Notes: generated by a model not told the origin, from the sequence alone. Shown: positions 1,726-55,259, numbered from the stretch's first letter. The stretch is DNA of 64,000 bases from Enterobacteria phage RB18 (NC_054906.1), one strand, 5' to 3'. Program-made: numbers and translations.

Positions 1726-1731
1726 TAACTT

Positions 1732-1739: not shown

Positions 1740-1766
1740 GTATTATATTTCAACAAGGAAAATACA

Positions 1767-6483: not shown

Positions 6484-6496
6484 AATATTTCCTCAG

Positions 6497-6504
6497 TATA
6501 AATA
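6497..6504 (+). promoter_or_regulatory. Late promoter (TATAAATA) for uvsW
   Basis: Exact TATAAATA about 30 nt upstream of the uvsW ATG. Confidence 0.7.
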
Positions 6505-6533
6505 TAGATATATTTATTACATGGTATTTAGAC

Positions 6534-8045
6534 ATGACTGACATTAAAGTACATTTTTATGATTTTAGTCACGTGAGAATTGATTGTGAAGAAAGTACAT
6601 TTCATGAACTCCGTGATTTCTTTAGCTTTGAAGCTGATGGGTATCGTTTTAATCCGAAATACAAATATGGCCACTGGGATGGACGAATCCGTCTTTTAGA
6701 TTATAATCGTCTTCTTCCATTCGGCTTAGTCGGGCAAATTAAAAAGTTCTGTGATAACTTTGGCTATAAAGCCTGGATTGACCCACAAATTAACGAAAAA
6801 GAAGAATTATCAAGAAAAGATTTTGATGAATGGCTTTCTAAATTAGAAATCTATTCAGGAAATAAAAGAATTGAACCACACTGGTATCAAAAAGATGCAG
6901 TGTTCGAAGGATTAGTTAATCGTCGTAGAATTCTTAATCTTCCAACATCCGCTGGTAAATCGTTAATTCAAGCTTTGCTTGCGCGATATTATTTGGAAAA
7001 TTATGAAGGTAAAATTCTTATCATTGTTCCAACAACTGCTTTAACAACTCAGATGGCTGATGACTTCGTTGACTATCGTTTATTCAGTCATGCAATGATA
7101 AAGAAAATTGGTGGCGGAGCATCAAAAGATGATAAATATAAAAATGATGCACCAGTTGTTGTTGGTACATGGCAAACTGTAGTAAAACAACCAAAAGAAT
7201 GGTTCTCACAGTTTGGAATGATGATGAATGATGAATGCCATCTTGCTACAGGAAAAAGTATTTCATCTATCATATCAGGTTTAAATAACTGCATGTTCAA
7301 ATTCGGTTTGTCTGGTTCATTACGTGATGGCAAAGCCAATATCATGCAGTATGTTGGAATGTTTGGTGAAATATTTAAGCCAGTAACGACTTCTAAATTA
7401 ATGGAAGATGGACAAGTAACTGAGCTAAAAATTAATAGTATTTTTCTTCGCTATCCCGATGAGTTCACTACTAAATTAAAGGGAAAAACTTATCAAGAAG
7501 AAATAAAAATTATTACTGGGCTTAGTAAAAGAAATAAATGGATCGCTAAATTAGCTATTAAGCTTGCGCAAAAAGATGAAAACGCTTTTGTCATGTTTAA
7601 ACATGTATCACATGGTAAAGCTATTTTCGATTTAATTAAAAATGAATACGATAAAGTTTATTACGTATCAGGGGAAGTTGATACCGAAACCCGCAATATA
7701 ATGAAAACCTTAGCTGAAAATGGTAAAGGAATAATTATAGTAGCTAGTTATGGTGTATTTTCTACTGGTATTTCAGTTAAAAATCTGCATCACGTTGTTT
7801 TAGCGCACGGTGTTAAATCAAAAATCATTGTATTACAAACAATCGGTCGTGTATTACGTAAGCATGGTTCTAAGACAATAGCAACCGTCTGGGACCTCAT
7901 AGATGATTGTGGCGTTAAGCCAAAATCTGCTAATACGAAAAAGAAATATGTTCATTTGAACTATCTTTTAAAACACGGCATTGATCGTATTCAGCGCTAC
8001 GCAGATGAAAAATTTAATTACGTAATGAAAACAGTTAATTTATAA
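6534..8045 (+). CDS. uvsW: UvsW RNA-DNA / DNA helicase (main 503-aa reading frame)
   Basis: SF2 helicase motifs (PTSAGKS Walker A, DECH box); T4 uvsW position. Confidence 0.85.
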   Translation: MTDIKVHFYDFSHVRIDCEESTFHELRDFFSFEADGYRFNPKYKYGHWDGRIRLLDYNRLLPFGLVGQIKKFCDNFGYKAWIDPQINEKEELSRKDFDEWLSKLEIYSGNKRIEPHWYQKDAVFEGLVNRRRILNLPTSAGKSLIQALLARYYLENYEGKILIIVPTTALTTQMADDFVDYRLFSHAMIKKIGGGASKDDKYKNDAPVVVGTWQTVVKQPKEWFSQFGMMMNDECHLATGKSISSIISGLNNCMFKFGLSGSLRDGKANIMQYVGMFGEIFKPVTTSKLMEDGQVTELKINSIFLRYPDEFTTKLKGKTYQEEIKIITGLSKRNKWIAKLAIKLAQKDENAFVMFKHVSHGKAIFDLIKNEYDKVYYVSGEVDTETRNIMKTLAENGKGIIIVASYGVFSTGISVKNLHHVVLAHGVKSKIIVLQTIGRVLRKHGSKTIATVWDLIDDCGVKPKSANTKKKYVHLNYLLKHGIDRIQRYADEKFNYVMKTVNL

Positions 8046-8070
8046 GGGCTTCGGCCCTTTGGAGAAAAAG

Positions 8071-8301
8071 ATGTTACTAGAATTTAAACAATTTCTTTAT
8101 GAAGCTTCTATTGATGAATTTATGGGTAAAATTGCCTCTTGTCAAACATTAGAAGGTCTAGAAGAACTTGAAGCTTATTATAAGAAAAGAGTCAAAGAAA
8201 CTGAATTAAAAGATACTGATGACATCTCAGTCAGAGATGCTTTGGCAGGAAAAAGAGCTGAATTAGAAGATTCAGACGATGAAGTAGAAGAAAGCTTTTA
8301 A
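8071..8301 (+). CDS. uvsW.1: UvsW.1, probably the C-terminal part of UvsW (see findings)
   Basis: 76-80 aa ORF directly downstream in +1 frame; track ORF begins at TTG 8059. Confidence 0.6.
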   Translation: MLLEFKQFLYEASIDEFMGKIASCQTLEGLEELEAYYKKRVKETELKDTDDISVRDALAGKRAELEDSDDEVEESF

Positions 8302-8549: not shown

Positions 8550-8557
8550 TATTTATA
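8550..8557 (-). promoter_or_regulatory. Late promoter (TATAAATA, minus strand)
   Basis: tatttata on plus strand about 25 nt upstream of the small ORF start at 8524. Confidence 0.5.
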
Positions 8558-8647
8558 ACCCCATCTTAAAGCGCATTTCTTGTACACGCTTTAAACATGC
8601 TTCCATTTCTGCTAAAAGTCTAAATACTTCTTTATAATTTGTCATAT

Positions 8648-8875
8648 TTACCCCATATCTCTCATATGCATATCAATGCCCATATCTTTAGAATAAAAAT
8701 ATTCATCAAGATATCCGGCAAATTTTCCTTTAATATAAAGGACATCTTCACCACACGGGTGGTCGGCCAGAATACGAATATCCTGACGCTTAAGATTATG
8801 CTTTTTCATTAAGAATTGAATCTCAGTTTCAAATTCTTCTTCATAATTAAAAGCATCATCAATGCTATATCTCAT
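8648..8875 (-). CDS. Hypothetical protein (uvsY.-1 position)
   Basis: 75 aa ORF overlapping uvsY stop. Confidence 0.5.
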   Translation of the reverse strand: MRYSIDDAFNYEEEFETEIQFLMKKHNLKRQDIRILADHPCGEDVLYIKGKFAGYLDEYFYSKDMGIDMHMRDMG

Positions 8876-17019: not shown

Positions 17020-17049
17020 ACTATAACACAATATGAGGGACTTGTAAAC
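17020..17049 (-). promoter_or_regulatory. T4-type early promoter with conserved leader
   Basis: Minus strand GTTTACA, 17 nt, TATAGT; roughly 55-nt block nearly identical to 32145-32188. Confidence 0.55.
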
Positions 17050-19106
17050 TACATTTTGAACTTTTTAGACATTCCGTTGATGTTAACCAAAGAAGCTAAG
17101 ATTTGAGAAACTTCGTTTTCCTCTTCTTTTGATTCTTCTACAAGGAATTGATTAAATCCAGCCATTGGACGAACTTCTCCGGTTTCCATTAGATAGTCAC
17201 CATCATATACTGATTCTTCTAATTGTTCAGAAGGAGGAACGATTGTACCTTCGATTAGATACTTGTTATAAGCAGTTTCTTTCATAAAGTAAGTACTTAC
17301 TTTATTAATCTTCAGTAAAATTCCACGCGGTAGAATAACTTCAGCTTCTGATGGAAATCCTGTTAAATGACCTGGAACGATAACTTTGATTCGCTCAGCT
17401 CCTTTAATTACCATACCCACGCTAGTTTCAGCATCTTCATTAGCATATGTAGAATGACTACCCATATGCATCAAATCTTCTGCATCAACAGAACCTTCTC
17501 CTTCACCAGAAAATACTGCGCCGGAATCATCTAGAGCCATATAGTTTTTACCATGCTCACCGAAGATATTTGGTTTAAGTGATGTCGATACGAAGTTCTT
17601 GAAATAGAACATTTTGTTTTCAATGTTATGACGCAAAGTTTTAAAGGTAACTTCTTGTCCACGATAAAGCGTAGTTCCTGGAGGAAGAACTGAACCTTTA
17701 GCGAATGCAGAATCCAACGTCTCGATGTGCTTAATAGCTCGTTCCATATATTCTTCACGGGTAGAATCTGGTTTACCCAAAAGGAACGAGTTCATTTCAA
17801 CATATGAATCTGCACAATAATCTTCAATTACATCAGATTCAGCTTGAGTTAATCCTTTTGGAGTTACTTCGGTGCTTGCGTATTCATATGCCTGAGCAGC
17901 AGATTCATTAATCAATTTATAAATGCCATTCATGACAAATTGAATAATAGCTGTCTTTTCATCTGGCGTAGCTTTAGAACCTTTAACCAAATCATTGATA
18001 ATTTTCTTAATAACATCAAAGCTATTAGAAATATTAATATCAGCAAGATCGCTTAAAATTTTATCAGTTTTATAATCAAAGAATTCTTTATTCTTTAAAT
18101 ATTCTTGAGAACCTTGATATGTTATATCGCTCTGCAACTTGATGGATGGATCACGTAAACGTGCATGGGCTAATGCAATATGATTTCGGAAGTTTTCTAG
18201 TTCATAATCGCTAGATTTAAAACGAGAAGCACTCCTCATACCACCGATAGCTCCTTTGTTGAAGTTTGAACCAATCTGAATAACGCCAGAGTTCATTGGT
18301 CCTTCTGCTTTATATACCGGAACTTTGGATTCAAACTCTTGATATTTCTTAGCAGCGAAGCTATCACCCTGAAGTGAAGCATCAACAGTAGAATATTGAG
18401 CTTGTGCTGCTAATCGACGACTAATTTTAGTTTTCTGAATAACAGCTTGGTCAGTGCGCTTATCATTTTCTAAAGCAATAGAAGCAGCAACTGCGACAGC
18501 TTTAGGAACAGCATTACCTGTTTTAACGTCTACATAAACATCACCAACCTTTGATTCAACTTTTGTGAATAACTCAGCTGAAATAGGAGGTACACCTGGA
18601 ATGTCTTCTAAATTGGCATTTTTACGGTAAACCATAATATATGCATATTTCTTATCATAGTCCCAGATTTCCTTTAAAAGAACATATCGGCCTGCTCCTT
18701 TAGTACGTACTAAACGGTCAGCAATAACTTGCATTTGACGAGCAGCGCCATTTGTTTTACTCTTTAGTACGCGGAATAAGCATGCATCAATTTTATACTG
18801 TTTCATTGTTTGAAGAGCAGTATCAAAAACAGCATTAATGACGCCAATTGGATTTCCACCCAAGTTTTTAAGCTTAACTAATGATAGTTTCTCATTAACA
18901 CCTATCATTACGATATGCATCATTTTGTCGCCTGGCTTAACGTTTTTATTCGTATCACCGCCAGAGGTGTATGTACAAAATCTAAATCCGGGGAGAACGC
19001 TTTCTTCACCGGCTTGAATAGCAAAAATTTGTGGTATTTTATGCTTAGGATTTAAGTTAACAACCGGCGCCGAAGCGCCGTCAAATAATTCTGTAATAAG
19101 TTCCAT
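17049..19106 (-). CDS. Alt-like mono-ADP-ribosyltransferase, second paralog (685 aa)
   Basis: N-terminal ~230 aa near-identical to neighbouring Alt; FVSTSL and EAEVILPRG ART motifs. Confidence 0.75.
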   Translation of the reverse strand: MELITELFDGASAPVVNLNPKHKIPQIFAIQAGEESVLPGFRFCTYTSGGDTNKNVKPGDKMMHIVMIGVNEKLSLVKLKNLGGNPIGVINAVFDTALQTMKQYKIDACLFRVLKSKTNGAARQMQVIADRLVRTKGAGRYVLLKEIWDYDKKYAYIMVYRKNANLEDIPGVPPISAELFTKVESKVGDVYVDVKTGNAVPKAVAVAASIALENDKRTDQAVIQKTKISRRLAAQAQYSTVDASLQGDSFAAKKYQEFESKVPVYKAEGPMNSGVIQIGSNFNKGAIGGMRSASRFKSSDYELENFRNHIALAHARLRDPSIKLQSDITYQGSQEYLKNKEFFDYKTDKILSDLADINISNSFDVIKKIINDLVKGSKATPDEKTAIIQFVMNGIYKLINESAAQAYEYASTEVTPKGLTQAESDVIEDYCADSYVEMNSFLLGKPDSTREEYMERAIKHIETLDSAFAKGSVLPPGTTLYRGQEVTFKTLRHNIENKMFYFKNFVSTSLKPNIFGEHGKNYMALDDSGAVFSGEGEGSVDAEDLMHMGSHSTYANEDAETSVGMVIKGAERIKVIVPGHLTGFPSEAEVILPRGILLKINKVSTYFMKETAYNKYLIEGTIVPPSEQLEESVYDGDYLMETGEVRPMAGFNQFLVEESKEEENEVSQILASLVNINGMSKKFKM

Positions 19107-19109
19107 GAT

Positions 19110-21206
19110 TTATCCTTGAACGAACTTGTAAGGCATGTTTGTAATATCTATGCAAGACGCAATAATTCCAAGAGATGATTCTACTTTCTGTTTAACATTT
19201 GATGAAACAAATGATGCAAAGTCAACTCTGTCTTCTATTTCAATATCACCTGTCATTGCAACCAATTCACCAGTTTCCATTAAATGGTCTCCGTCATAGA
19301 TTACCGATTCGGTGAGTTCTTCGGTGGTCATAACTTCAGCTTGAATGAGTTTTGTATTATTAGACGTGGTTCCGTCATTATTAGAAGCATCAGTTATTTT
19401 ATTAACTTTGACCATCAATCCGCGCGGTAGAATAACTTCAGCTTCTGTTGCTATTCCGAGATTTCCTGGATATACAACATTAACTTTATGAGCTCCATCA
19501 ATTGCCCATCCTATTTGAACTTTAACGTATTCAGGATTTTCTTTATACGCTCTTATTTCGCTTGGATTAATAGTTATTCCTTCTTCATTTTTATCAACTG
19601 TCAATTCATTACGAGCTTCTGGTTCTAAAAGACCAATACCAGCATGTGTAATTCCAAAACGTCCAAAAATGATAGGAGTTAAAGAAGTAGATACAAAATT
19701 TCTGAAATAGAACACTTTATTTTTAACTAGTGCTTCGTATATAGGAGCAGTCATACTTTGAGCACGATAAACTGTGATGCCTTCCGGTATGCGGTCACCA
19801 TTTTCAAAAGCTGAATCTAAGTTATTTATAGCAGATTCAATTTCTTTTTCACTCATTACATCATATCGTTCTGGATTGTAACGACCTAAAAGAAGATTAT
19901 TGATGTCAGTATATCCTGAACCGCAATATTCTCTAATGCCACGCTTTTGTGATGGAGTATATTTAGAACCATCGCGGGCAATAGTAATATCAATCATTGG
20001 ACCAGCACCAATTCCAGAAAAACTGTAAATCATTCGTTTGAGGAATTTAGTTTTTGCTGCGTTCCAGGAATTTTTAGTTATTTCTTCCCAGACTTCATCT
20101 GGTTGTCCTTTACGATTTTTATTATGATTAGCAAGCCATTTATCTTTATAATCTTCAAAGAATTGATTTACAGCTGCTGCGTATTTCTCTAAACATTTTA
20201 TTGAAGTAGTTGGTTCATTTTTAATTGCATTAAAAATTACTTCTTTAATTTTTTCTGAAACTTCACCGACTTGACTCATTGGAAAGAATTTATAATCATA
20301 GTGAAGTTCATCTGCCGTTCCTTCAGCAATAATTTTTGCTGCCTTTGTTTTAGAAGCTAATGAATTAATTCCAATTTTCATTTCTTCTGCTTCGGGAATT
20401 AAAGGTGCAGTAGCTGGTTTATTAAAATTAGCTGCTGTAGATTCATACTTCTGGAATAATTCACTTTCAAATCTAGAAGATTCCAATGACTGACTTTGTG
20501 CAATTGCTCTACGGGAAATTTTAACTTTAACGATTACAGCTTGGTCAGAACGTTTATCATTTTCTTGCGCAATAGATGCTGCAATTGCCTCATTTTTAGT
20601 TACTTGGGCTCCAGTATCTTTATTGATATAAACATCACCGACTTTCGATTCAACTTTAGTAAAGAGCTCGGTACTAATTTCCGGAACTCCTGGAATGTCT
20701 TCTAGTGATACATTTTTGCGATGTATAAGAATATATGCATACTTTTTATCGTAATCCCAGAGTTCCTTAAGAAGGACGTATCTACCACCTGAACGACTAC
20801 GGATAAGTCTATCAGCAATAACTTGAATTTGTCGAGCTTGGCCAGCAGTTTTAGACTTAAGAATACGAAGCATACAAGCATCAATTTTATATTGACGCAT
20901 TGTTTGCATTGCAACAGTAAAAACTGAATTGATATAATTAATCGGGCTTGGACCAAGACCTTTTAATTTGGCAATTGAACCTTTAGCAGTTAATGTAAAA
21001 GGAACAATATGCATCATTTTATCGCCCATCTTTAAATCGCGATTAGTATCACCTCCAGATGTATAGGTACATAAACGAAAGCCTGGTTGTTCAATTGCAT
21101 CATCAACATGAACTGAAAAAATTTGTGGTATTTTCTTCTTTGGATTTAAGTTTGTAATCGGAAGAGTAGTATCTTCGTCAAATAATTCTGTAATAAGTTC
21201 CATCAT
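19110..21206 (-). CDS. alt: Alt ADP-ribosyltransferase (capsid-packaged, 698 aa)
   Basis: FVSTSL (STS) and EAEVILPRG (ExE) motifs; late promoter upstream; T4 alt position next to ligase. Confidence 0.8.
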   Translation of the reverse strand: MMELITELFDEDTTLPITNLNPKKKIPQIFSVHVDDAIEQPGFRLCTYTSGGDTNRDLKMGDKMMHIVPFTLTAKGSIAKLKGLGPSPINYINSVFTVAMQTMRQYKIDACMLRILKSKTAGQARQIQVIADRLIRSRSGGRYVLLKELWDYDKKYAYILIHRKNVSLEDIPGVPEISTELFTKVESKVGDVYINKDTGAQVTKNEAIAASIAQENDKRSDQAVIVKVKISRRAIAQSQSLESSRFESELFQKYESTAANFNKPATAPLIPEAEEMKIGINSLASKTKAAKIIAEGTADELHYDYKFFPMSQVGEVSEKIKEVIFNAIKNEPTTSIKCLEKYAAAVNQFFEDYKDKWLANHNKNRKGQPDEVWEEITKNSWNAAKTKFLKRMIYSFSGIGAGPMIDITIARDGSKYTPSQKRGIREYCGSGYTDINNLLLGRYNPERYDVMSEKEIESAINNLDSAFENGDRIPEGITVYRAQSMTAPIYEALVKNKVFYFRNFVSTSLTPIIFGRFGITHAGIGLLEPEARNELTVDKNEEGITINPSEIRAYKENPEYVKVQIGWAIDGAHKVNVVYPGNLGIATEAEVILPRGLMVKVNKITDASNNDGTTSNNTKLIQAEVMTTEELTESVIYDGDHLMETGELVAMTGDIEIEDRVDFASFVSSNVKQKVESSLGIIASCIDITNMPYKFVQG

Positions 21207-29363: not shown

Positions 29364-30756
<1,393 letters not shown>

Positions 30757-30760
<4 letters not shown>

Positions 30761-32191: not shown

Positions 32192-33779
<1,588 letters not shown>

Positions 33780-33806
33780 AATAAAATGGGCCTTGCGGCC
33801 CACTCC

Positions 33807-34985
33807 TTAAAAATATTTTTTAAAACTCATCATAACTTTATCATCAACATCATTATCAATCTGTGCAACAAGGTAAGATGACAGTTCTACTTCTTGCGGT
33901 GCAGATTGAACATTATCAGAATTAAGATATTCACGAATCCAAGGATATGGATGTTTAACCGGAGCATCGGTAATTGGGCATGGAAGACCGCACTGTTTCA
34001 TACGAGATACAGTTAAGTAATCAATAAAGCTCCACATGCTATTTGTATTTAATCCAGGAACATCGCCATCTTTAAATAAATGAACTGCCCAATCTTTTTC
34101 TTGGCGGTTAACTTCCATGAAAATATCAACTGCTTCTTGTTCACACTCTTGAGCAATTTTAACCCATTCATCGCCATCAGTACCAGATTGAAGTTGACGA
34201 ATAATATATTGAGTGCCTTTAAGGTGAAGCTGTTCATCGCGTGCAATGAACTTCATAATCTTGGCATTACCTTCCATGATTTCCATGTTCTTATGGAAGT
34301 TAAAGGTACATGCGAAAGATACATAAAAACGAATAGCTTCCAATGCGTTGATTACATGCAAACAGAGGTAAAGAGATTTCATTAGCTCACGCTTCCAATA
34401 TGTCTCATGCTCAATAGCATCTTCAATAACGTCTTCGTCTGCATTAATTTCTTTTTGGTATTCGATATCAGCTTTAGCGTTTTCCCAATAACGAGTTTTA
34501 ATCAGAACATCATCATAATAACGTCCAATGGATTCAGCACGTTTCATAATAGCTTCATCTAATACAATTTCATCAAATACCTTCGATGGATCAGTATAAA
34601 GATTTCGCATGATATGTGTATATGAACGGCTGTGAATAGTTTCACTAAAAGTCCACGTAGCAACCCATGTATCAAGGCTTGGGTCTGAAATTAATGACAT
34701 AAGTACAGCAGACGGCGCACGACCCTGAATGCTATCCAAAAGTGATTGATACTTCAAGTTATTAGTAAAAATATCTTGCTGATACTGAGGAAGCTTGTTA
34801 AATTGTGCAGCATCCATCATCAAGTTTACTTCTTCAGGACGCCAGAAAAATGACAATTGCTTTTCGGTTAAATCTTCAAAAACTTTATGACGTTGAATAT
34901 CATAACGCGCAATACCAAGACCTGAACCAAAAAACATAGGTTCTTTTAAAACATCAACTGGATTTGTATTAAAAACTGTGCTCAT
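33807..34985 (-). CDS. nrdB: Ribonucleotide reductase beta subunit, uninterrupted
   Basis: 392 aa continuous ORF with ferritin-like di-iron motifs; no intron. Confidence 0.9.
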   Translation of the reverse strand: MSTVFNTNPVDVLKEPMFFGSGLGIARYDIQRHKVFEDLTEKQLSFFWRPEEVNLMMDAAQFNKLPQYQQDIFTNNLKYQSLLDSIQGRAPSAVLMSLISDPSLDTWVATWTFSETIHSRSYTHIMRNLYTDPSKVFDEIVLDEAIMKRAESIGRYYDDVLIKTRYWENAKADIEYQKEINADEDVIEDAIEHETYWKRELMKSLYLCLHVINALEAIRFYVSFACTFNFHKNMEIMEGNAKIMKFIARDEQLHLKGTQYIIRQLQSGTDGDEWVKIAQECEQEAVDIFMEVNRQEKDWAVHLFKDGDVPGLNTNSMWSFIDYLTVSRMKQCGLPCPITDAPVKHPYPWIREYLNSDNVQSAPQEVELSSYLVAQIDNDVDDKVMMSFKKYF

Positions 34986-35036
34986 AAATTTTCCGCTTAG
35001 TTAATAGTTGGTGACTCGTCCGTGAGTCAAATTATA

Positions 35037-37301
35037 TCATAATTTACAGGATGAACAATCTTCAGCTTTTGGAGTTTCTATTTCATAATCATCAGTACCA
35101 GAACCATCGCGGGTATTGTGATAATAGAAATTTTTTCCGCCAAAATACCAAAAATACAAAAGGTCATCAATCATTATTGACATTGGAACCTTGCCTTTAG
35201 GGAAGATTTGGGGGTCATAGTATGTATTCGCCGAAGCTGATTGACAAACCCATTTCAGCATAATAGCTACCTGCGTAAGATAAGGTTTATTACCTTTCTT
35301 AGCTAATTTCCATGTATAGTCGTAAAGGTCTATGTTATGCTCAATATTGGGCACGACTTGATTAAAGGAGCCCTCTTTTGATTCTTTAACAGAGACTGGT
35401 CCACGTGGAGGCTCGATACCGTTTGTACTGTTAGAAACTTGGGAAGATGACTCACATGGCATAAGTGCTGATAATGTGCTATTACGGATGCCAAAGAGCT
35501 TAAGGTCTTCCCGCAACGACGACCAGTCACAAACGTATTTTGGAGCTGCGATTTGGTCAATCTTTTTATTGTACCAGTCGATAGGTAATTCGCCTCGAGA
35601 CCAACGAGTGTCTGAATAATATTCACAAGGTCCTTTTTCTTTGGCGAGCTTAATGGATGCTTTAATGAGTCCATACTGTAATCTCTCAAATAGTTCATGT
35701 GTTAAATCGTTAGCATCTTCATAAGAAGCAAAGTTACTTGCCAGCCAAGCTGCATAGTTAGTAACACCTACACCGAGGTTACGACGCTTTTTAGCTTTTT
35801 CTGCTTCAGGAACTGGATATCCTTGGTAATCCAAAAGATTATCAAGAGCACGAACTTGGACTTCTGCCAATTCATTAATTTTATCTTGGTCTTGCCAGTC
35901 AAAATTATCTAGTACGAATGCAGAGAGAGTACACAATCCAATTTCAGCATCAGGGCTATTCACATCATTTGTTGGAATAGCAATTTCACAGCACAAGTTA
36001 CTCTGACGAATAGGTGCCTTTTCACGAATAAACGGAGTGTAGTTATTCGTATTATCAATGAACTGTACATAAATCCTTGCTGTTCCTGAGCGTTCAGTCA
36101 TGAGCAATTCAAATAGTTCACGGGCTTTAATACGCTTTTTACGAATATTAGGGTCTTTTTCTGCTGCTTCGTATAATTCACGGAAACGGTCTTGGTCTTT
36201 AAAATAAGAATAATAAAGCTCGCCACCCATTTCATGCGGACTGAACAAAGTAATGTAATCGTTCTTTCCGAATCGTTCCATCATCAAATCATTCAGCTGA
36301 ACACCATAATCCATATGACGAATGCGGTTTTCTTCTACGCCTTTGTTATTTTTCAAAACGAGAAGATTTTCAACTTCCAAATGCCAAATAGGATAATAAG
36401 CAGTAGCAGCGCCGCCACGAATTCCACCCTGTGAACATGATTTAACTGCAGTCTGAAAATGTTTCCAAAAAGGAATAACACCGGTATGGCGTACTTCACC
36501 CATACCAATCTTAGAACCTTCAGCACGAATCATACCAACGTTAATACCAATTCCAGCGCGTTTAGAGATATATTCAACAATTGAAGCGGAAGCCTTGTTG
36601 ATAGACTTTAATGAATCACCTGCCTCAATAACAACACATGAACTAAACTGTCTAGTCGGAGTACGACAACCAGCCATAATAGGAGTTGGCAATGAAATCT
36701 GTCGAGTGGATACTGCTTCATAAAAATGGATAACATGTTTTAATCTATCAACAGGTTCATCTTGATGCAGTGCCATTCCAATAGTCATAAATGCAAACTG
36801 TGGAGTTTCATAAATTTGACCAGTGGTTTTATCTTTAACTAAATATTTTTCTTTTAATTGCATCGCCCCGGAATAAGTAAATTCCATATCCCGTTCGTGC
36901 TTAATTTTTGATTCTAAAAATGTAATTTCTTCTGCTGAATATTTTGACAATAATTCAGGGTCATATTTACCTGCATTTACACAATAAGAAATATGGTCAA
37001 TAAATGAACGTGGTTCATACTGCCCATAAACATGCTTACGAAGAGCGAACATTAAACAACGTGCAGCTACATATTGGTAATCAGGCTCTTCAACCGAAAT
37101 AGAATTCGCAGCGGCCTTAATGACAATAGTCTGAATATCATCAGTTGTCATTCCATCACGGAGATAAGATTTAATATTTTCATATAATTCATAAGGATCT
37201 ACTGATGTTCCTTCAGCTGCCCAAGATAAAACTTTAATAATTTTTTGTGGGTCAAAGCTCTGAGAAACACCACTACTTTTGATAACATTAATTAATTGCA
37301 T
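35037..37301 (-). CDS. nrdA: Ribonucleotide reductase alpha subunit
   Basis: 754 aa; class I RNR large-subunit signatures. Confidence 0.9.
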   Translation of the reverse strand: MQLINVIKSSGVSQSFDPQKIIKVLSWAAEGTSVDPYELYENIKSYLRDGMTTDDIQTIVIKAAANSISVEEPDYQYVAARCLMFALRKHVYGQYEPRSFIDHISYCVNAGKYDPELLSKYSAEEITFLESKIKHERDMEFTYSGAMQLKEKYLVKDKTTGQIYETPQFAFMTIGMALHQDEPVDRLKHVIHFYEAVSTRQISLPTPIMAGCRTPTRQFSSCVVIEAGDSLKSINKASASIVEYISKRAGIGINVGMIRAEGSKIGMGEVRHTGVIPFWKHFQTAVKSCSQGGIRGGAATAYYPIWHLEVENLLVLKNNKGVEENRIRHMDYGVQLNDLMMERFGKNDYITLFSPHEMGGELYYSYFKDQDRFRELYEAAEKDPNIRKKRIKARELFELLMTERSGTARIYVQFIDNTNNYTPFIREKAPIRQSNLCCEIAIPTNDVNSPDAEIGLCTLSAFVLDNFDWQDQDKINELAEVQVRALDNLLDYQGYPVPEAEKAKKRRNLGVGVTNYAAWLASNFASYEDANDLTHELFERLQYGLIKASIKLAKEKGPCEYYSDTRWSRGELPIDWYNKKIDQIAAPKYVCDWSSLREDLKLFGIRNSTLSALMPCESSSQVSNSTNGIEPPRGPVSVKESKEGSFNQVVPNIEHNIDLYDYTWKLAKKGNKPYLTQVAIMLKWVCQSASANTYYDPQIFPKGKVPMSIMIDDLLYFWYFGGKNFYYHNTRDGSGTDDYEIETPKAEDCSSCKL

Positions 37302-37618
37302 AAGTCCTCAACTTGAAAATCGTCTTTAAACAATCGGTTAACTATATGAGCTATTATATCACCATGACACGGCTTTGGTTTACATGTGCATCCTAGCCTC
37401 ATTCCACGTAAAGGCTCTAAATGTGCTTTAGTTATTTCTCCGGATTTAATTCGACGTATAAAATCTTTTTTGAATAATTCAATGGCAGCCTCCCGGCTGC
37501 CAGCATCTTTACCGACGTAATTTCCCCAAAATGTACCACGGTGAATATTAACATCAAAGTCGGATTTGTATTTATTCACTACCCGGCATAGACGGCCCAC
37601 GCTGGAATAATTCGTCAT
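37292..37618 (-). CDS. Small protein with C-terminal CxC-x4-CHGD motif
   Basis: 108 aa; [16 protein letters not shown] cysteine/histidine cluster. Confidence 0.45.
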
Positions 37619-37835
37619 ATTGTTTTTCCGTTAATACAGTAATATCATAGTAACAATCGGAAGAAGTTTTAACTGTGGAAATTTTATTGTCAAAATACTC
37701 ACGAGTCATTTTATGAGTATAGTATTTTTTACCATAAATGGTAATAGGCTGTTCTGGTCCTGGAACTTCTAACTCGCTTGGGTTAGGAAGTGTAAAAAGA
37801 ACAACGCCAGAAGTATCTTTAAATCGTAAAATCAT
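37572..37835 (-). CDS. Hypothetical protein (87 aa)
   Basis: ORF overlapping td start by 4 nt. Confidence 0.4.
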
Positions 37836-38692
37836 ATTGCCATTTTCCCTTTAATTGCTGGATGCGATTCATAATTTTCAAGGATAAAATCTTTCGGTTT
37901 CATGTATTCAGTTAACCAGTAAAGCTGTGTTTCGGTGTCACAATTTCCAAACTCTATAGGCCAATCAATTTTAAGTTCACACAGTTCTTTAGGCTCACGA
38001 CGTAAAATTTCTTTACATTGCGCAGTATGATTCATATAGATGTGAGTATTACCACCAGAAAATATCAAATCTCCTGGGATAAGATTACACATCTTAGCCA
38101 CAATATGCGTCAAGGCAGCGTACGAGGCAATGTTGAATGGCAATCCCAAGAAAACATCTACACTTCTTTGGTACCATTGTAAATCAAGATAACCATTACG
38201 CACATTAAACTGATAGAACATATGACAGGGCGGTAATGCCATTTGATTGATTTCAGCTGGATTCCATGCTGAAACGATTTGACGTCGATCAGTTGGTAAT
38301 TTTTTAATACGATCAATAGTTTCAACTAATTGATCCACACCGCCGAAATCACGCCATTGTTTACCGTATATAGGACCAAGTTCACCACTATGATATCCTA
38401 GGTCTTTAGCCTGGTTTTCATAGTTATCGTCCCAAATAGTTTTACCTTGAATAAGACTGCCATGAGTGCGAAGACGTAAATCATTAACATTGGTAGAACC
38501 GGAAATAAACCATAGAAGCTCAGCAATGCATGCATTCCAGGCGAGCTTTTTAGTTGTTACCGCAGGAAAACCTTTAGTTAAATCCCAGCGTAATTTAGTA
38601 CCGAACAAAGCAATTGTTCCTGTGCCTGTTCGGTCATCGGTTTCATAGCCATTTTCAAAAATGTCTTTAATTAAATCTTGGTATTGTTTCAT
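37832..38692 (-). CDS. td: Thymidylate synthase, uninterrupted
   Basis: 286 aa continuous ORF; PPCH active-site motif; no intron. Confidence 0.9.
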
Positions 38693-38737
38693 TTAGTACC
38701 TTATATAAATTATAATACATTTTATGAAGCTAAATAA

Positions 38738-39097
38738 TCAATACGGTTTAGCATCAAATTTTCTCTCAATTTCAGGCGTGAAATATAATTCTTTACCGCG
38801 TTTGGAAAAGCGACCAATAATATGATAATTATTTTCATCAAATGTGATATTACCAATATCCATAGCTTTCAACCAAATATCGATATTTCTATCCAGCTTT
38901 ATGTCAAAATTCCAATACGGAGAACTATTACCGAAAATACTGCAAGCGGATTCAGTGAAACAACTGCTATAAATCTTGTCTTTAGGAACTACTAATTGAT
39001 AGACGCCTTTAATAAACTGAGGACCTTGCCATTTTGGCTGTTTCACGTCTTTTTCTAATAGAATAGGGTAATAATTAAAATTCATATTTTCCGCCAC
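38738..39097 (-). CDS. Hypothetical protein (119 aa) inserted between frd and td
   Basis: ORF with SD filling a roughly 410-bp frd-td spacer. Confidence 0.5.
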   Translation of the reverse strand: MAENMNFNYYPILLEKDVKQPKWQGPQFIKGVYQLVVPKDKIYSSCFTESACSIFGNSSPYWNFDIKLDRNIDIWLKAMDIGNITFDENNYHIIGRFSKRGKELYFTPEIERKFDAKPY

Positions 39098-39105
39098 GCG
39101 TTATT

Positions 39106-39932
<827 letters not shown>

Positions 39933-39943
39933 ATTATCTCCTA

Positions 39944-40276
39944 TTAAAAAGGATCAGGAACATATCCGCTAGCTTTAATCATTTTAATTAACGTTAACAT
40001 TCCTTTGTTAACTGCTCGTGAGATTTCATCAAAAACTTCATCACTAAAAAGTTCTAACACGCCCTTCTGAACTTTTAATTTACAGCCAACAATTTCTTCA
40101 TCGCCTATAGTAAATTCATTACCACCAATTCCACCGAAAAACTTAATTACACCAGTTAACTGTCTTCCACGAGAATATGGGTCGTGTGATAAAGTAATAT
40201 GAGTCACCCCGGGTACAGTTTTAAATTGGCAGCGAATATTTACTTGTGAAATTCCAGTTACATGAATGTCAGACAT
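39944..40276 (-). CDS. Hypothetical protein (110 aa)
   Basis: ORF. Confidence 0.45.
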   Translation of the reverse strand: MSDIHVTGISQVNIRCQFKTVPGVTHITLSHDPYSRGRQLTGVIKFFGGIGGNEFTIGDEEIVGCKLKVQKGVLELFSDEVFDEISRAVNKGMLTLIKMIKASGYVPDPF

Positions 40277-41647: not shown

Positions 41648-42556
41648 TTAAAGGTCATTCAAAAGGTCATCCAGGTCCGTGTCATCAGCACTAGATGAAC
41701 TGCCAGAGCTTGAGCTCATAAAATCATCTTCAGTTTTTGTATTGAAGTCATCAACATTGAATGCATCCAAATCATCAGCAACTTTATCAGCTTTCTTAGC
41801 GGCAGTTGCTGCGGCACCGCCCATCACAGCAGTTCCCATAACTTGACCGAATTTAGTGCTCAGTTCTTCAAACGATTTGAATTTATCTTTAGAAGTCATT
41901 TCAGAAAGGTCAACCATTTGTTCGAACAGTTCTTTCTGGAAAGATTCATCGTCAATGTTTGGAATCGCAGATTGATTCAGGAATTTAGATTCGTCGTAGT
42001 TACTAAATCCAGAAACTTGTTTAACTTTCAGTACAAAGTTAGCACCTTCCCACGGACAAGTTACATCAACCGGAGTTTCACCCATTTCAACATCAACTGC
42101 AATCATTGCATTGATTTTATCCCAGATTTTCTTACCGAAACGGTATTTAAATACTTTACCTTCATTTTCTGGAGCAGCTGGGTCTTTTACTACAAGAATG
42201 TTAGCCCAGTAAGAAGTTTTACGTTTAACAAGACTGTACTCTTTATTGTCAGTGTTGTACAGATCATTTTTACTAATGTATTGACATACTGGGCAAGAAT
42301 CGTAATCACCGTGGGTAGATGAACAGTTTTCAATATACCATTTACCATTTTTCTTGAAACCGTGATTTACAAGAATTGCGAATGGTGCTTGTTCATCATT
42401 TTTAGACGGAAGAAAACGAATTACTGCTTGACCGTTACCCGCATTATCGAGTTTCAGTTTCCACTCGCCTTTATCTTCAGAAGAAAAACCGCCTTTATTT
42501 CCAGCCAGTTTAGCCATTTGTGCAGCGAGTTCAGCAGTAGATTTACGTTTAAACAT
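41648..42556 (-). CDS. 32: Single-stranded DNA-binding protein gp32
   Basis: 302 aa; acidic Ser/Asp-rich C-terminal tail; T4 gp32 position. Confidence 0.9.
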
Positions 42557-42639
42557 TTTTATTTCCTTTTTAATTTAATTAACAGTTGGTGCTATGACGA
42601 TGTATGACCTCATAGCTGGTCAGTGAGATAATTATAATC

Positions 42640-42647
42640 TATTTATA
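42640..42647 (-). promoter_or_regulatory. Late promoter (TATAAATA) in composite gene 32 promoter region
   Basis: tatttata on plus strand with adjacent TATAAT and MotA-like TTGCTTA on minus strand. Confidence 0.45.
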
Positions 42648-42655
42648 ATAAGCAA

Positions 42656-50651: not shown

Positions 50652-53600
50652 ATGGCTACTTTAAAACAAATACAATTTAAAAGAAGCAAAATCGCAGGTG
50701 CACGTCCTGCTGCTTCAGTATTAGCCGAAGGTGAATTGGCTATAAACTTAAAAGATAGAACAATTTTTACTAAAGATGATTCAGGAAATATCATTGACTT
50801 AAGCATTTCTGCTGGTGGTAATATCAGTGGAAATATCACTCAAACTGGTGATTATACACAGACTGGAAAATTTAATTTAATTGGTCCGCAAATTGTAGCA
50901 AGCGGTGGATATATTGAGTTTAATTATCGTACTACTGGAAGTGGGGCTTGGTCCGGTCAACATACTGCGAAAGCTCCAATTTTTGTAGATTTAAGCTCAG
51001 CTACTTCCACATCTGAATATAATCCTATAATTAAACAGCGCTTTAAAGATGGAACTTTTTCATTAGGTACTTTAGTTTCTGAAGGTTCGTTGAAGATTCA
51101 TTATATCAATGAATCTGGCGATTCGAAATATTGGACGTTTCGACGTGACGGCGGATTTACTGTTGACGGTGGAGGTTTAGGAGTATCAGGAGGTAGTATA
51201 ACTACATCTGGAAATATTGCAGCTCTCGGAAATATTACTTCGCCTCAGATTAATACTAAAAATATTATTTTAGATACAAAAGCATTTGGACAATACGATT
51301 CGCAATCATTAGTTCAATATGTTTATCCTGGAACAGGTGAAGAAAATGGTATAAACTATCTTCGTAAAGTTCGAGCTAAATCAGGCGGAACCATTTACCA
51401 TGAAATCGCTTCAGCTCAAACCGGTAAAAATGATGAAATTTCTTGGTGGACCGGAAATACACTTACTACTAAATTAATGGGTCTTCGTAATGATGGCGCA
51501 ATGGTATTACGTCGTTCACTTGCTATTGGCACAATTACCACTGACGAAAATACTAACAACTATGGTTCTCCTACTCCAATGGGAGAAAGATATATTGCTT
51601 TGGGCGATGCTGCCACTGGTTTAAAATACATTAAGCAGGGTGTTTATGATTTAGTAGGTAATTGGAATTCTGTTGCTTCTATTACTCCTGATAGTTTCCG
51701 TAGTACTCGTAAAGCGTTATTTGGACGTTCAGAAGACCAAGGCGGAACCTGGACAATGCCTGGAACGAACGCTGCCTTTTTATCAGTTCAAACACAGGCT
51801 GATGAAAACACTGCTGGAGACGGCCAGACGCATATTGGCTATAACTCAGGCGGAAAAATGAACCACTATTTCCGTGGTAAAGGCAAAACTAATATTAATA
51901 CTCAGGAAGGTATGGAAGTTAATCCGGGTATTTTGAAATTGGTAACTGGCTCTAATAATGTAATGTTTTATGCTGATGGCGGTATTACATCTGTTAAGCA
52001 GCTTTCAATATATAATGGCATATATTTAGCAGCTAATAATTCTACTGCTGGGCTAACATTCGCTCCAACTACTACAATTGATGGTACTAAGCAAATTTTG
52101 TGGGAAGGCGGTACTCGCGCTGGGCAGAATAAAAGCTATGTAACTGTTAAAGCATGGGGTAATTCATTTAACGCATCTGGCGATCGTAATCGTGAAACGG
52201 TTTTTGAAGTAGCTGATGGACAAGGATATTATTTTTATTCACAGCGTGTGGCTCCAAGTGGCTCTGAAACTACTGGGCCTGTTGTAACCCAGTTCAATGG
52301 ACAAGTTAATGCTAGAGGAAGTATTATTACTGACGGAAGTTTTAAAGTTAATGGATTAAGCACTTTAGTCGGTAATGTTACTATGTCTAATGGTTTGTTT
52401 GTCCAAGGTGGTTCTTCTATTACTGGACAGGTAAAAATTGGTGGAACGGCTGATGCATTAAGAATTTGGAATGCTGAATACGGTGCTATTTTCCGTCGCT
52501 CAGAAAGTAATCTTTATATTATCCCGACTCCTAAAGATGCTGGAGAATCGGGCGGTATAAGTAATCTTAGACCATTGATAATAGAACTGAACACTGGCAC
52601 AGTTAAAATGTCGCATGATGTTCATTTAGGAGATTCTGGATCTGGTACAGGACTTTTACAAGTAAGTAATAGTCTTAAAACTATTAAAATGATATGTCCA
52701 GTAACTATTAATTCACCTAATGCAGTGCTTACTCTAGATTCTCCTTCATCTTCTGCTAATTATTTACTGGGTTCTAGAGATGGAACTAGATCGTGGTATG
52801 TTGGTCTTGGTGGCGCTGGAAATGATTTATCGCTTTATAGTCAATATAATGGACACGGTCTTGTTATAAGCAATAATTTAGTATCAATCACTAAACCTCT
52901 TAAAGTCGGAAATGCACAATTAGGAACTGACGGTAATATTACCAATGGTTCAGGAAACTTTGCCAACTTAAATACCACGTTAAATCGTAAAGTTAATTCT
53001 GGATTTATTACTTATGGAGCAACCTCTGGATGGTATAAGTTTGCAACAGTAACAATGCCACAATCCACTTCAACAGTCTTCTTTAAAATAGTTGGAGGTT
53101 CTGGATTTAATAGCGGATTATTCACCCAATGTAATATTGCTGAAATTGTTTTACGTACTGGTAATGAAAGACCTTCTGACTTAAATGCTGTATTATACAC
53201 AAGAACAACTGGAATGTATAGCGCAGCATTTAGAAATATTGCAGTTAACAATGTCTCTGGAAATACATATGACATTTATGTTTATGCTGGAACATATTGT
53301 AATCAACTAGTTTGTGAATGGTCATGTACCGAAAATGCTACTGTTAGCGTTATTGGTATTAACTCATCTACCCAATCACCTGTGGATGCTCTTCCAGATA
53401 CAGCAGTTGATGGGCAAGTTGCTAATGTTCTTAATAACTTGGTTGATCGCGGTAAAGTTAAGCGTTATGAAGCCGATTCTGAAATAGCTATTAATAGCCC
53501 AACCGGTATTCGTATCAGAAGCAATGGCGATAAAACTGGTTCTGTTGCTACAATGCTACGAAATGATGGCGGCAGTTTTTATATTCTGTTTACAGATAAA

Positions 53601-54437
53601 AATGCCACCGATGGCGCAGCAACTGTTAATGGTGATTGGAATAGTAAACGTCCTTTCGCAATTAACTTAACAACCGGCGAAGTGATGATGAATAATGGCA
53701 TAGCTGTTCGCAGCGCTGCTTTATTCTATAATAGCATAAACGTCAAAGATAATGGTTCTATTAACTTTGATAAATCAGGTGCTAACCCGAGAAATATGAG
53801 AATATTTCATGCTGGCGATGCTTCTCGCGGTAACCGCATTGAAATTGCAGATGAAACTAACTATATTGCTTACTTTGAAAAGGCTCCAGGTGGAGCTAAC
53901 CGCTTTGTAGTAAATAATGCTACTGTAGCTGGTGTTAACCAAATGAATTCATTTGGTATTAATATCAATAACGCACTTGGTGGAAATAGTATAGCATTTG
54001 GTGATAGCGATACTGGTATTAAGCAAAATGGCGATGGATTATTAGACATATATGCGAACAGCGTACAAGTGTTCCGTTTCCAAAACGGTGATTTGTACTC
54101 ATACAAAAATATAAATGCTCCAAACGTTTATATTCGTTCTGATATTCGTTTAAAATCCAACTTTAAGCCTATCGAAAATGCACTTGATAAAGTTGAAAAA
54201 CTTAACGGTGTCATTTACGATAAAGCTGAATACATCGGTGGAGAGGCAATTGAAACTGAAGCGGGTATTGTGGCTCAAACGTTACAAGACGTTTTACCAG
54301 AAGCTGTCCGCGAAACAGAAGATAGCAAGGGTAATAAAATACTCACTGTTTCTTCTCAAGCCCAGATTGCTCTTCTGGTTGAAGCTGTGAAAACACTTTC
54401 TTCTCGTGTAAAAGAACTTGAATCTAAACTTATGTAA
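50652..54437 (+). CDS. 37: Long tail fibre distal subunit gp37, T2-type with C-terminal auto-processing chaperone domain
   Basis: 1261 aa; C-terminal SDIRLK...VKELESKL resembles intramolecular chaperone/peptidase S74 module. Confidence 0.85.
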   Translation: MATLKQIQFKRSKIAGARPAASVLAEGELAINLKDRTIFTKDDSGNIIDLSISAGGNISGNITQTGDYTQTGKFNLIGPQIVASGGYIEFNYRTTGSGAWSGQHTAKAPIFVDLSSATSTSEYNPIIKQRFKDGTFSLGTLVSEGSLKIHYINESGDSKYWTFRRDGGFTVDGGGLGVSGGSITTSGNIAALGNITSPQINTKNIILDTKAFGQYDSQSLVQYVYPGTGEENGINYLRKVRAKSGGTIYHEIASAQTGKNDEISWWTGNTLTTKLMGLRNDGAMVLRRSLAIGTITTDENTNNYGSPTPMGERYIALGDAATGLKYIKQGVYDLVGNWNSVASITPDSFRSTRKALFGRSEDQGGTWTMPGTNAAFLSVQTQADENTAGDGQTHIGYNSGGKMNHYFRGKGKTNINTQEGMEVNPGILKLVTGSNNVMFYADGGITSVKQLSIYNGIYLAANNSTAGLTFAPTTTIDGTKQILWEGGTRAGQNKSYVTVKAWGNSFNASGDRNRETVFEVADGQGYYFYSQRVAPSGSETTGPVVTQFNGQVNARGSIITDGSFKVNGLSTLVGNVTMSNGLFVQGGSSITGQVKIGGTADALRIWNAEYGAIFRRSESNLYIIPTPKDAGESGGISNLRPLIIELNTGTVKMSHDVHLGDSGSGTGLLQVSNSLKTIKMICPVTINSPNAVLTLDSPSSSANYLLGSRDGTRSWYVGLGGAGNDLSLYSQYNGHGLVISNNLVSITKPLKVGNAQLGTDGNITNGSGNFANLNTTLNRKVNSGFITYGATSGWYKFATVTMPQSTSTVFFKIVGGSGFNSGLFTQCNIAEIVLRTGNERPSDLNAVLYTRTTGMYSAAFRNIAVNNVSGNTYDIYVYAGTYCNQLVCEWSCTENATVSVIGINSSTQSPVDALPDTAVDGQVANVLNNLVDRGKVKRYEADSEIAINSPTGIRIRSNGDKTGSVATMLRNDGGSFYILFTDKNATDGAATVNGDWNSKRPFAINLTTGEVMMNNGIAVRSAALFYNSINVKDNGSINFDKSGANPRNMRIFHAGDASRGNRIEIADETNYIAYFEKAPGGANRFVVNNATVAGVNQMNSFGININNALGGNSIAFGDSDTGIKQNGDGLLDIYANSVQVFRFQNGDLYSYKNINAPNVYIRSDIRLKSNFKPIENALDKVEKLNGVIYDKAEYIGGEAIETEAGIVAQTLQDVLPEAVRETEDSKGNKILTVSSQAQIALLVEAVKTLSSRVKELESKLM

Positions 54438-54439
54438 AA

Positions 54440-54462
54440 GAGGGCTTCGGCCCTCTAAGGAT
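54440..54462 (+). terminator. Hairpin between genes 37 and 38
   Basis: agagggc-TTCG-gccctct followed by T-rich tract. Confidence 0.5.
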
Positions 54463-54467
54463 TTTTA

Positions 54468-55259
54468 ATGGCAATTGTAGGTGTTCCTGGCTGGATTGGC
54501 GAATCTGCCGTGAATGAAACTGGACAACGTTGGATGGATGCTGCAATGAAAGCAGTTCGTGTTTCAGTTCCTGGTTGGATGAGCTCAATGGCTGGACAAT
54601 CTAAAGAAGTATATTACAGCATTGGTGCTAGCAATTCTTATAATAAAGATACACTAATAAATTGGATAAAAGCCCAAGGAAGTACTCCTGTTGTTATTAC
54701 TATTACAGGAAATATTGTTTCTCAATCTACTGGTGTTCCATGCTTAGATTTTCCTAGCTCATTAACTAATGCATATGTTACCTTAAATATTAATAGTGGG
54801 GTTCATGTATTAGGTCGGGGAGGAAATGGCGGAAGTAACTCTGCTGGTGGAGCAGGAGGAACTGCAATAAATAACGGAATTGGAACTCGTTTAAGAATAA
54901 ACAATAATGGTATTATTGGTGGCGGTGGCGGTGGCGGCGCAGGTGCTAGATACAATCCTTTCCCTCAAATGGATATGAAATTTGGTGGCGGCGGAGGTCG
55001 TCCATTTGGCGCAGCTGGCGCAGCAGGAGGTGGCGCAGCTGCAGCATCTGCTGGTACAATTTCTGCTCCCGGTAAAGGCACTGTTTCTGGGGTTCACCAT
55101 GGAGGAGATGGTGGAGATTTAGGAGCTGCTGGCAAATCTTCATATATTCAAGGTGGTACTGGAGGAACTGTTCACTCGGGTGGTGCTGCGGGTAAAGCTG
55201 TTACTGGTAATGCTCCAACTTGGACTAAAGTTGGCACAATATATGGTTCAAGAGTATAA
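54468..55259 (+). CDS. 38: Tail fibre tip adhesin gp38 (T2-type, glycine-rich)
   Basis: 263 aa with poly-Gly blocks (GGGGGGGAGA, GGGGGRPFGAAGAAGGG) separated by short variable segments. Confidence 0.8.
   Translation: MAIVGVPGWIGESAVNETGQRWMDAAMKAVRVSVPGWMSSMAGQSKEVYYSIGASNSYNKDTLINWIKAQGSTPVVITITGNIVSQSTGVPCLDFPSSLTNAYVTLNINSGVHVLGRGGNGGSNSAGGAGGTAINNGIGTRLRINNNGIIGGGGGGGAGARYNPFPQMDMKFGGGGGRPFGAAGAAGGGAAAASAGTISAPGKGTVSGVHHGGDGGDLGAAGKSSYIQGGTGGTVHSGGAAGKAVTGNAPTWTKVGTIYGSRV
54918..54940 (+). repeat. GGY-codon simple repeat encoding poly-glycine in gp38
   Basis: ggtggcggtggcggtggcggcgc. Confidence 0.7.

Follow-up and report, generated by a model that had tools for sequence, protein, structure and literature searches.

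The stretch of DNA considered here, hereafter called the window, comprises 64,000 nucleotides of Enterobacteria phage RB18 (NC_054906.1) and spans six places at which phage T4 carries selfish DNA, namely the group I introns of the td and nrdB genes and the homing endonuclease genes mobE, segE, segG and segD. We consider it very probable that five of these six places are unoccupied in the window, which is the common condition, and that the remaining one is occupied, by segD. Judging from its sequence, the window is part of a mosaic Tequatrovirus (T4-like coliphage) genome. A whole-window comparison by blastn reveals that T4 (NC_000866) carries the colinear stretch at positions 105556 to 168903, which begins at the end of gene 23 and extends to rIIB, with ~94-97% identity and a handful of clean gaps and replacements. 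T2 (AP018813) is equally colinear with the window (93.5-98% identity by blastn). Other Tequatroviruses are the best matches overall, with the top database record for the first 25 kb at 97.1% identity and phage teqsoen, at 98.1%, being the closest to the ~7 kb nrd-td region (positions 33000 to 40000). Among the records recovered, none equals the complete window in sequence.

Introns and endonuclease genes missing from the window

The annotation of T4 places I-TevI in the td intron, a defective I-TevIII in the nrdB intron, nrdB.1 together with mobE, segE and segG in the gaps nrdA-nrdB, inh-uvsW and 32-59, respectively, and segD between genes 23 and 24. Edgell, Gibb & Belfort 2010 (PMC2988022) give the same placement of elements in their Table 1. 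An earlier note on this DNA had likewise assigned mobE, segE and segG to these gaps in T4, and had described td (286 aa) and nrdB (392 aa) as interrupted in T4 and intron-less in the window. Both genes are indeed continuous open reading frames (ORFs) in the window. They align without gaps to the spliced exons of T4, apart from a 12-nucleotide indel in nrdB, whose spliced product in T4 has 388 aa, and what the window lacks is exactly the 1017-nucleotide td intron and the 598-nucleotide nrdB intron. For this comparison, the T4 introns were cut out at positions that follow the group I rules (exon 1 ends with T and the intron ends with G). Two of the three T4 intron sites are covered by the window (td and nrdB), and the third, in nrdD, lies outside it.

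Protein family matches agree with uninterrupted genes. The thymidylate synthase gene td (positions 37832 to 38692, minus strand) has a Pfam Thymidylat_synt match (E = 2.5e-95) that is unbroken from position 1 to 266 of 266, and nrdB, encoding the small subunit of ribonucleotide reductase (33807 to 34985, minus strand), matches PF00268 (Ribonuc_red_sm; E = 6e-37). Matches on nrdB, nrdA and td are all full length. The spacers, which the earlier note had given as 51 bp (nrdA-nrdB), 50 bp (inh-uvsW) and 99 bp (32-59), have precisely these lengths when remeasured, and the alignment with T4 that it had proposed for these intervals demonstrates the exact loss of the introns and of the mobE, segE and segG segments.

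We also searched the window by blastn (word size 7) and tblastn using the T4 td and nrdB introns, mobE, segE, segG, I-TevI and I-TevIII. The same searches of T4, conducted as a positive control, recovered 100% of these elements. No significant match was found in the window to any of these queries except to segD, which is the single window match of the I-TevI protein (E = 1e-5 by tblastn) and is also matched by the N-terminus of SegE; segE and segG yield no other tblastn match. A group I intron hidden within td or nrdB, the finding that could have overturned the note, was not detected by alignment, blastn or tblastn.

A scan with Rfam release 15 is uninformative on this point. Its group I intron model gives no match in the window, whether judged by gathering score or by E-value thresholds, and the T4 control is also negative: the T4 locus at 133000 to 148500, which holds both the td and the nrdB introns, has no match at the gathering threshold. 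Because the T4 locus with both introns is equally unmatched, the negative result for the window carries no weight. The model is blind to the T4 td and nrdB introns, and therefore the lack of an Rfam match is no basis for declaring ORF-bearing phage introns absent. Intron absence rests on the alignments to T4, not on Rfam.

The nrdB gene and the MobE target

Alignment to T4 places the empty insertion site of the nrdB intron between nucleotides 676 and 677 of the gene (window positions 34309 and 34310, minus strand). The exon junction is in frame (SFAC/TFNF; here and below a slash marks the junction), and the sequence of the site, TCTTTCGCAT/GTACCTTTAAC, is two nucleotides away from the fused exons of T4 and one away from T2. 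All of these differences fall within the 40 nucleotides upstream, and the downstream side is identical. The T4/RB3-type intron, which follows nucleotide 664 of T4 nrdB (TTTTGCGT/GTACC), is absent, and the window junction at 34310/34309 reads TTTCGCAT/GTACC.

The 51-bp spacer between nrdA and nrdB (34986 to 35036) contains no ORF and no homing endonuclease gene, as determined from the ORF list and the T4 annotation, and differs from the T2 spacer at four positions. Searches by tblastn with T4 MobE and with the HNH proteins of phages FriedrichMiescher and FL08 found no HNH gene in this gap of the window. The two relatives, whose backbone is nearly that of the window, each carry an HNH/NUMOD protein in the gap, of 213 aa in FL08 and 243 aa in FriedrichMiescher, and sequence comparison identifies the gap as a hot spot for endonuclease genes. 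These HNH genes fit the published observation that hef takes the place of mobE in some phages (PMC2988022). No terminators, promoters or stable RNA structures were found in the empty spacers above the level of shuffled controls, and phages that do not carry mobE have been reported to have no terminator in the nrdA-nrdB spacer (PMC2790892).

The nicks that depend on MobE have been mapped in T2 nrdB to nucleotides 122 to 126 (Wilson & Edgell 2009, PMC2790892). The recognition site is proposed to be bipartite, consisting of polymorphic nucleotides 114 to 131 and of a conserved block coding for FFWRPEE, and all mobE-less phages are reported to have AAG at nrdB codon 42 (PMC2790892). Comparison with T2 places the equivalent of the polymorphic recognition and nick region at window positions 34855 to 34872 (minus strand; nrdB nucleotides 114 to 131). 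Here, codon 42 is AAG, the region matches T2 at 17 of 18 nucleotides, and the adjacent FFWRPEE block shows no difference from T2. The lone change, a synonymous CAG to CAA at nucleotide 129, is located three nucleotides from the mapped nicks. More broadly, the 5′ end of nrdB and the adjoining spacer are T2-like at 56 of the 57 sites that distinguish T4 from T2 (informative sites). FL08, with the same nrdB backbone and a mobE-like gene in the gap, carries T4-like ‘immune’ polymorphisms in the MobE region. From these sequence features, the MobE site is well supported as a natural homing target, and is the best supported among the empty sites.

The gene upstream of this gap, nrdA (35037 to 37301, minus strand), encodes the 754-aa large subunit of ribonucleotide reductase (Pfam Ribonuc_red_lgC, E = 3.8e-135). 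Near its 3′ end, just upstream of the nrdA-nrdB hot spot, nucleotides ~2050 to 2150 (window ~35150 to 35250) form a patch that sets the window apart from T4 as well as from T2, with 21 differences in 150 nucleotides that include M to L, G to F and Y to F replacements. This patch is shared by teqsoen and FL08, but not by FriedrichMiescher. Between nrdA and td, nrdA.1 (DUF4326, 108 aa) and nrdA.2 (DUF5496, 87 aa) are ordinary T4-type small genes according to the ORF list, Pfam and the T4 annotation (37292 to 37835, minus strand).

A third td allele at the I-TevI homing site

All 861 nucleotides of the window td gene align to T4 with no gap across the junction, which is in frame (FLG/LPF) and corresponds to the T4 insertion point after nucleotide 549 (TTGGGT/CTACCG). 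The allele itself is divergent. Over the first 715 nucleotides, identity is 83-84% to both T4 and T2 (83.6% for T2), whereas the T2 and T4 genes share 95.5% identity over the same nucleotides. By sequence, the window td is a third allele, RB14-type, that is neither T2’s nor T4’s. Approximately 101 records carry this allele at an identity of at least 95%, RB14 included, and every carrier among 60 sampled entries from this search is intron-less.

I-TevI uses a 38-bp homing site with a 20-bp binding region centered on the intron insertion site, and cuts at 5′-CAACG-3′ located 23 and 25 nucleotides upstream (PMC2988022, PMC5009752). The critical bases of the CNNNG motif are C1 (position –27) and G5 (position –23), and I-TevI acts poorly on many of the central triplets (PMC5009752). 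Alignment to T4 places the equivalent site (–27 to +11) at window positions 38133 to 38170 on the minus strand, with the insertion point between 38144 and 38143. Here the cleavage motif is CAAAG rather than the CAACG of T4 (38166 to 38170; td nucleotides 523 to 527), which keeps the critical bases C–27 and G–23 at the right distance. The full site reads CAAAGAAGTGTAGATGTTTTCTTGGGA/TTGCCATTCAA in the window and CAACGCTCAGTAGATGTTTTCTTGGGT/CTACCGTTTAA in T4, and the encoded peptide is identical. The window differs from T4 at 10 of the 38 positions, all of them synonymous, compared with six of 38 for T2. Within the 20-bp binding region the two are closer, with 14 of 20 positions matching T4 in the window (six different) and 15 of 20 in T2 (five different). 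The eight nucleotides at the cut are changed at four positions in the window and at one in T2.

I-TevI is described as tolerant of substitutions in its homing site (PMC2988022), and T2 td is described as undergoing conversion from the I-TevI cut in crosses of T4 with T2 (PMC2790892, citing Liu et al. 2003). Therefore, divergence of the binding region of the size observed in the window is probably tolerated. No published data were found on the activity of I-TevI with CAAAG or the AAA triplet. The sequence of the site makes the window td a plausible I-TevI homing target.

A natural td chimera is found in phage KarlGJung (MZ501089), whose gene, as far as nucleotide 374, agrees with the window and other RB14-type alleles at 64 of 67 informative sites and is mostly of T4/T2 type from nucleotide 394 on. 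The switch thus lies 130 to 150 nucleotides upstream of the I-TevI cut, and the td intron with I-TevI that follows is 99.7% identical to that of T4. A co-conversion tract left by homing would be expected to look like this, and the chimera documents exchange between RB14-type and intron-bearing td alleles.

A separate observation concerns T2 and T4, between which the synonymous td differences are concentrated in the I-TevI site (five of 15 codons, versus eight of 121 across nucleotides 151 to 519; Fisher p = 0.006). The td allele of the window does not exhibit this concentration.

One occupied and two empty seg sites

The single occupied place is located between genes 23 (ending at 955) and 24 (starting at 1767), where segD, a free-standing GIY-YIG homing endonuclease gene, lies antisense at positions 1005 to 1706 (minus strand). 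The earlier note had placed a ‘SegD-like’ GIY-YIG endonuclease gene here. Both the domain, by a Pfam SegE_GIY-YIG match of 27.8 bits (cut-off 25 bits), and the position bear this out, and the SegD family is correct, but the wording understates the relationship: all 223 of 223 amino acids are identical to T4 SegD, and on this basis the gene is SegD itself. A longer ORF of 233 aa, obtained mechanically, is explained by an upstream in-frame ATG; the T4 start codon corresponds to position 1676. The cassette of 842 nucleotides, with both intergenic stretches, differs from T4 by four substitutions and one indel (99.4% identity), compared with ~96% in its flanks, and all 24 informative sites in window positions 901 to 1800 are T4-like. 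In T2 the 23-24 gap is 83 bp and contains no segD. The target of SegD is listed as unknown in Table 1 of PMC2988022.

The empty segE site is the 50-bp spacer at 6484 to 6533, between inh (5803 to 6483) and uvsW (starting at 6534), and the empty segG site is the 99-bp spacer at 42557 to 42655, between gene 32 (41648 to 42556) and gene 59 (starting at 42656). Neither gap holds a segE or segG GIY-YIG ORF, as judged by the ORF list and tblastn. Both spacers are the same as those of T2, base for base, and their flanks are also T2-like at every informative site, with 41 of 41 in the first ~170 nucleotides of uvsW and 20 of 20 at the 32-59 junction. In phages without segE, the SegE cut is reported to lie in the intergenic region (PMC2330249). 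In the window, this intergenic region is that of T2, and what can be said of the SegE target extends to this T2-like flank.

Gene 32 is less uniform. Nucleotides ~170 to 375 (window 42180 to 42390) carry 10 T4-like versus three T2-like informative sites, in a patch that lies inside T2-like flanks. SegG reportedly cuts within gene 32, ~332 bp from its insertion site, and we take nucleotides 170 to 375 to be the region of this cut. The patch could be a trace of an earlier conversion in which segG was not inherited.

The uvsW region (6534 to 8301) is divided in the window, as in T2, into an ORF of 503 aa followed by a separate ORF of 80 aa. The T4 reference record has a single uvsW of 1764 nucleotides, in a section that is flagged there for sequence discrepancies.

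Distribution among Tequatrovirus records

To describe how common these states are, we counted records, including GenBank/RefSeq duplicates, of which ~450-500 are comparable; ~496 records cover at least 80% of window positions 33000 to 40000. The td intron with I-TevI is present in 197 records (counting only those with at least 80% query coverage), segE in 159, segG in 142, segD in 51-53, and the T4-type block with a truncated I-TevIII intron and mobE in 23. Among other records, some contain a complete I-TevIII intron, and some contain just a mobE-like or Hef-like gene. The empty sites of the window are the majority condition, and its occupied segD site is the unusual one. This majority is in line with the published view of T4 as the outlier, most of its relatives having few endonuclease insertions (PMC2988022).

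The mixture of empty and occupied sites had been taken by the earlier note as the mark of a T2-like, intron-poor lineage. This use of the mixture as a lineage marker is not borne out: each empty state is the one found in most Tequatrovirus records and therefore does not mark any particular lineage. The description as T2-like holds in part. Site occupancy, the spacers and gp38 resemble T2, but the window also has a third td allele, carries segD, and is about equally distant from T2 and T4. The gp38 protein (54468 to 55259, 263 aa) is a T2-type adhesin (PF05268/PF21721) and not a T4-type assembly factor.

In the same region as gp38 (50652 to 55259), gene 37 encodes 1261 aa, and its distal part is unlike that of T4. 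Elsewhere, positions 17049 to 21206 contain two tandem genes for Alt-like ADP-ribosyltransferases of 685 and 698 aa (PF03496), an arrangement also observed in T2 and T6; T4 has at this locus one alt together with the fragments alt.-1 and alt.-2.

Homing model and alternative explanations

In the window, td and nrdB are plain continuous genes that need no splicing, and the empty loci would serve as recipients when a cell is infected jointly with a T4-type phage. An endonuclease from the donor would cut or nick the allele that lacks the element, and repair templated by the donor would copy the endonuclease gene or intron along with flanking sequence (homing with co-conversion). For segD the roles would be reversed, with phages that do not carry it as the recipients. 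That the empty sites would be cut is inferred from their sequences. The view of these loci as natural homing targets, advanced in the earlier note, fares best for MobE, given the 17 of 18 match to the T2 nick region, and less well elsewhere: the I-TevI target is plausible, the SegE target is represented by its T2-like flank, and SegG faces a T4-like patch. The same is true of the insertion and recognition sites that the note had proposed to check, since the nrdB and td sites could be located, CNNNG is kept and the MobE region is matched, but the I-TevI site is altered at 10 of 38 positions.

Several observations weigh against the empty sites being effective homing targets. Four of the 10 changes in the I-TevI site are clustered within eight nucleotides around the cut, and many CNNNG triplets are poorly cut by this enzyme (PMC5009752). 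The T4-like patch in gene 32 means that the window may be no SegG target. Ordinary recombination, rather than homing, could have produced the chimera in KarlGJung. A rival proposal is that RB14-type td is a partly or fully I-TevI-resistant allele, in which recoding of CAACGCTCA to CAAAGAAGT and the binding-region changes lower cutting and help intron-less td to persist. The exclusively synonymous nature of the site changes, which move Arg and Ser to other codon families, fits such an allele, as do the existence of poorly cut triplets (PMC5009752) and the intron-less state of all sampled carriers among the ~101 records. If td were resistant, the recoding (CAAAG-AAGT for CAACG-CTCA) could explain why ~100 Tequatroviruses are intron-less while ~40% of relatives are intron-bearing, and rare chimeras such as KarlGJung would be escapes. 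However, synonymous change affects eight of 15 homing-site codons and 43 of 108 codons elsewhere in the diverged part of td (Fisher p = 0.40), so the site is no more changed than the rest of a gene that is old and diverged as a whole. Moreover, C–27 and G–23 are both kept, I-TevI is described as tolerant of substitutions (PMC2988022), and KarlGJung joins an RB14-type allele to the intron with a junction placed as after homing. We regard resistance as unlikely, and targeted recoding of the I-TevI site was dropped as the main interpretation on the basis that synonymous change is not concentrated there. The simplest view of the window td, from its sequence, is that of an old, diverged allele rather than a targeted escape.

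Different histories of the empty sites were also considered. The lineage might once have carried the introns and endonuclease genes, and precise deletion might then have removed them, for example through recombination with an intron-less copy or one derived from spliced RNA, rather than never having been invaded. Loss is part of the life-cycle model for homing endonucleases (PMC2988022), and both the T4-like patch in gene 32 and the T4-like segD tract reveal past exchange with T4-type genomes. We nevertheless judge this history to be very unlikely, as the empty spacers are those of T2 and sit in flanks that are T2-like almost throughout (the uvsW, 32-59 and nrdB 5′ counts given above), and no remnants of the elements are detectable in the window by blastn or tblastn; an exact empty site, it should be said, looks alike under either history. 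Even less probable, to the point where we give it hardly any credence, is the idea that the neighborhood of td is in fact occupied. A 119-aa ORF (38738 to 39097, minus strand; from the ORF list) lies between frd and td in a 405-bp segment (38693 to 39105) that is kept in T2, teqsoen, KarlGJung and others; in T4, frd and td overlap. This ORF might be a small or degenerate homing endonuclease gene, considering that its segment is an insertion relative to T4 and that its orthologues are annotated as ‘putative homing endonuclease’ in the BASEL phages FriedrichMiescher and KarlGJung. The protein itself does not resemble one. It has no Pfam match even at E ≤ 1, belongs to PHROG 1928 (no known function), has three homologue clusters of which none has a nuclease domain, and carries no GIY-YIG, HNH or LAGLIDADG motifs. 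A sequence profile search of the PDB returned nothing below E = 0.24, and Foldseek found no PDB match with E < 1 on an AlphaFold2 model whose pLDDT of 55 is too poor for a meaningful fold search. With no support from Pfam, PHROGs, homologues, PDB profiles or AlphaFold2/Foldseek, the ORF was rejected as a hidden endonuclease. We continue to favor the interpretation that five of the six places are unoccupied.

Other segments absent from T4

Further segments of the window are absent from T4, and none is endonuclease-like. Positions 30458 to 30760 hold a 100-aa ORF (PHROG 2364) adjoining pseT, and positions 39687 to 40276, from frd to frd.1, hold two ORFs that are 81 and 110 aa long (DUF7247). A stretch of ~100 bp between the uvsW region and uvsY.-2 (8557 to 8659) is absent from both T4 and T2.

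Comparison with known systems

The central finding is already known in kind, and there is no departure from the well-described mobile-element biology of T-even phages. That group I introns and seg and mob genes are patchily distributed among these phages has been on record since the late 1980s, as summarized in PMC2988022. T2-type genomes have also long been documented as homing recipients, and the window is one more mostly unoccupied example. Its value beyond correct annotation is little, although there are three modestly useful by-products: a third td allele, with an I-TevI site unlike either of the substrates used in experiments; the natural KarlGJung chimera, as a record of exchange between this allele and the intron-bearing one; and the recognition that the Rfam group I model misses the T4 td and nrdB introns.

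Compared with the set of T4 mobile elements (PMC2988022, Table 1), the window has the same gene order, the same insertion points and an identical SegD protein, but five of the six T4 elements of the interval (the td intron with I-TevI, the nrdB intron with I-TevIII, mobE, segE and segG) are missing. T2 shares with the window a 392-aa NrdB, an intron-less td of 286 aa, gaps of 51, 50 and 99 bp, the extra ORF between frd and td, the T2-type MobE target in nrdB and a gp38 of the same adhesin family. However, T2 has no segD, its td is distinct over the first 715 nucleotides, and the overall identity of the window to T2 (93.5-97%) is not above its identity to T4.

The closest experimental parallel is trans-homing by MobE (PMC2790892). 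The window has the configuration of the recipient in that study: mobE and the nrdB intron are absent, the nrdA-nrdB spacer is free of terminators, and codon 42 is AAG. It differs from the T2 recipient by the synonymous change at nucleotide 129, and its target is read here from sequence. With respect to td, the phages with an RB14-type allele (RB14 itself, NC_012638, as well as Ozark, JLBYU22, WilhelmHis, teqsoen and others) are at least 99% identical to the window over all 861 nucleotides, are intron-less, and show no difference of substance in the td region. KarlGJung has a window-type exon 1 up to nucleotide 374 and the same frd-td ORF upstream of td, but its td intron and T4-type downstream part make it the occupied counterpart of the window allele.

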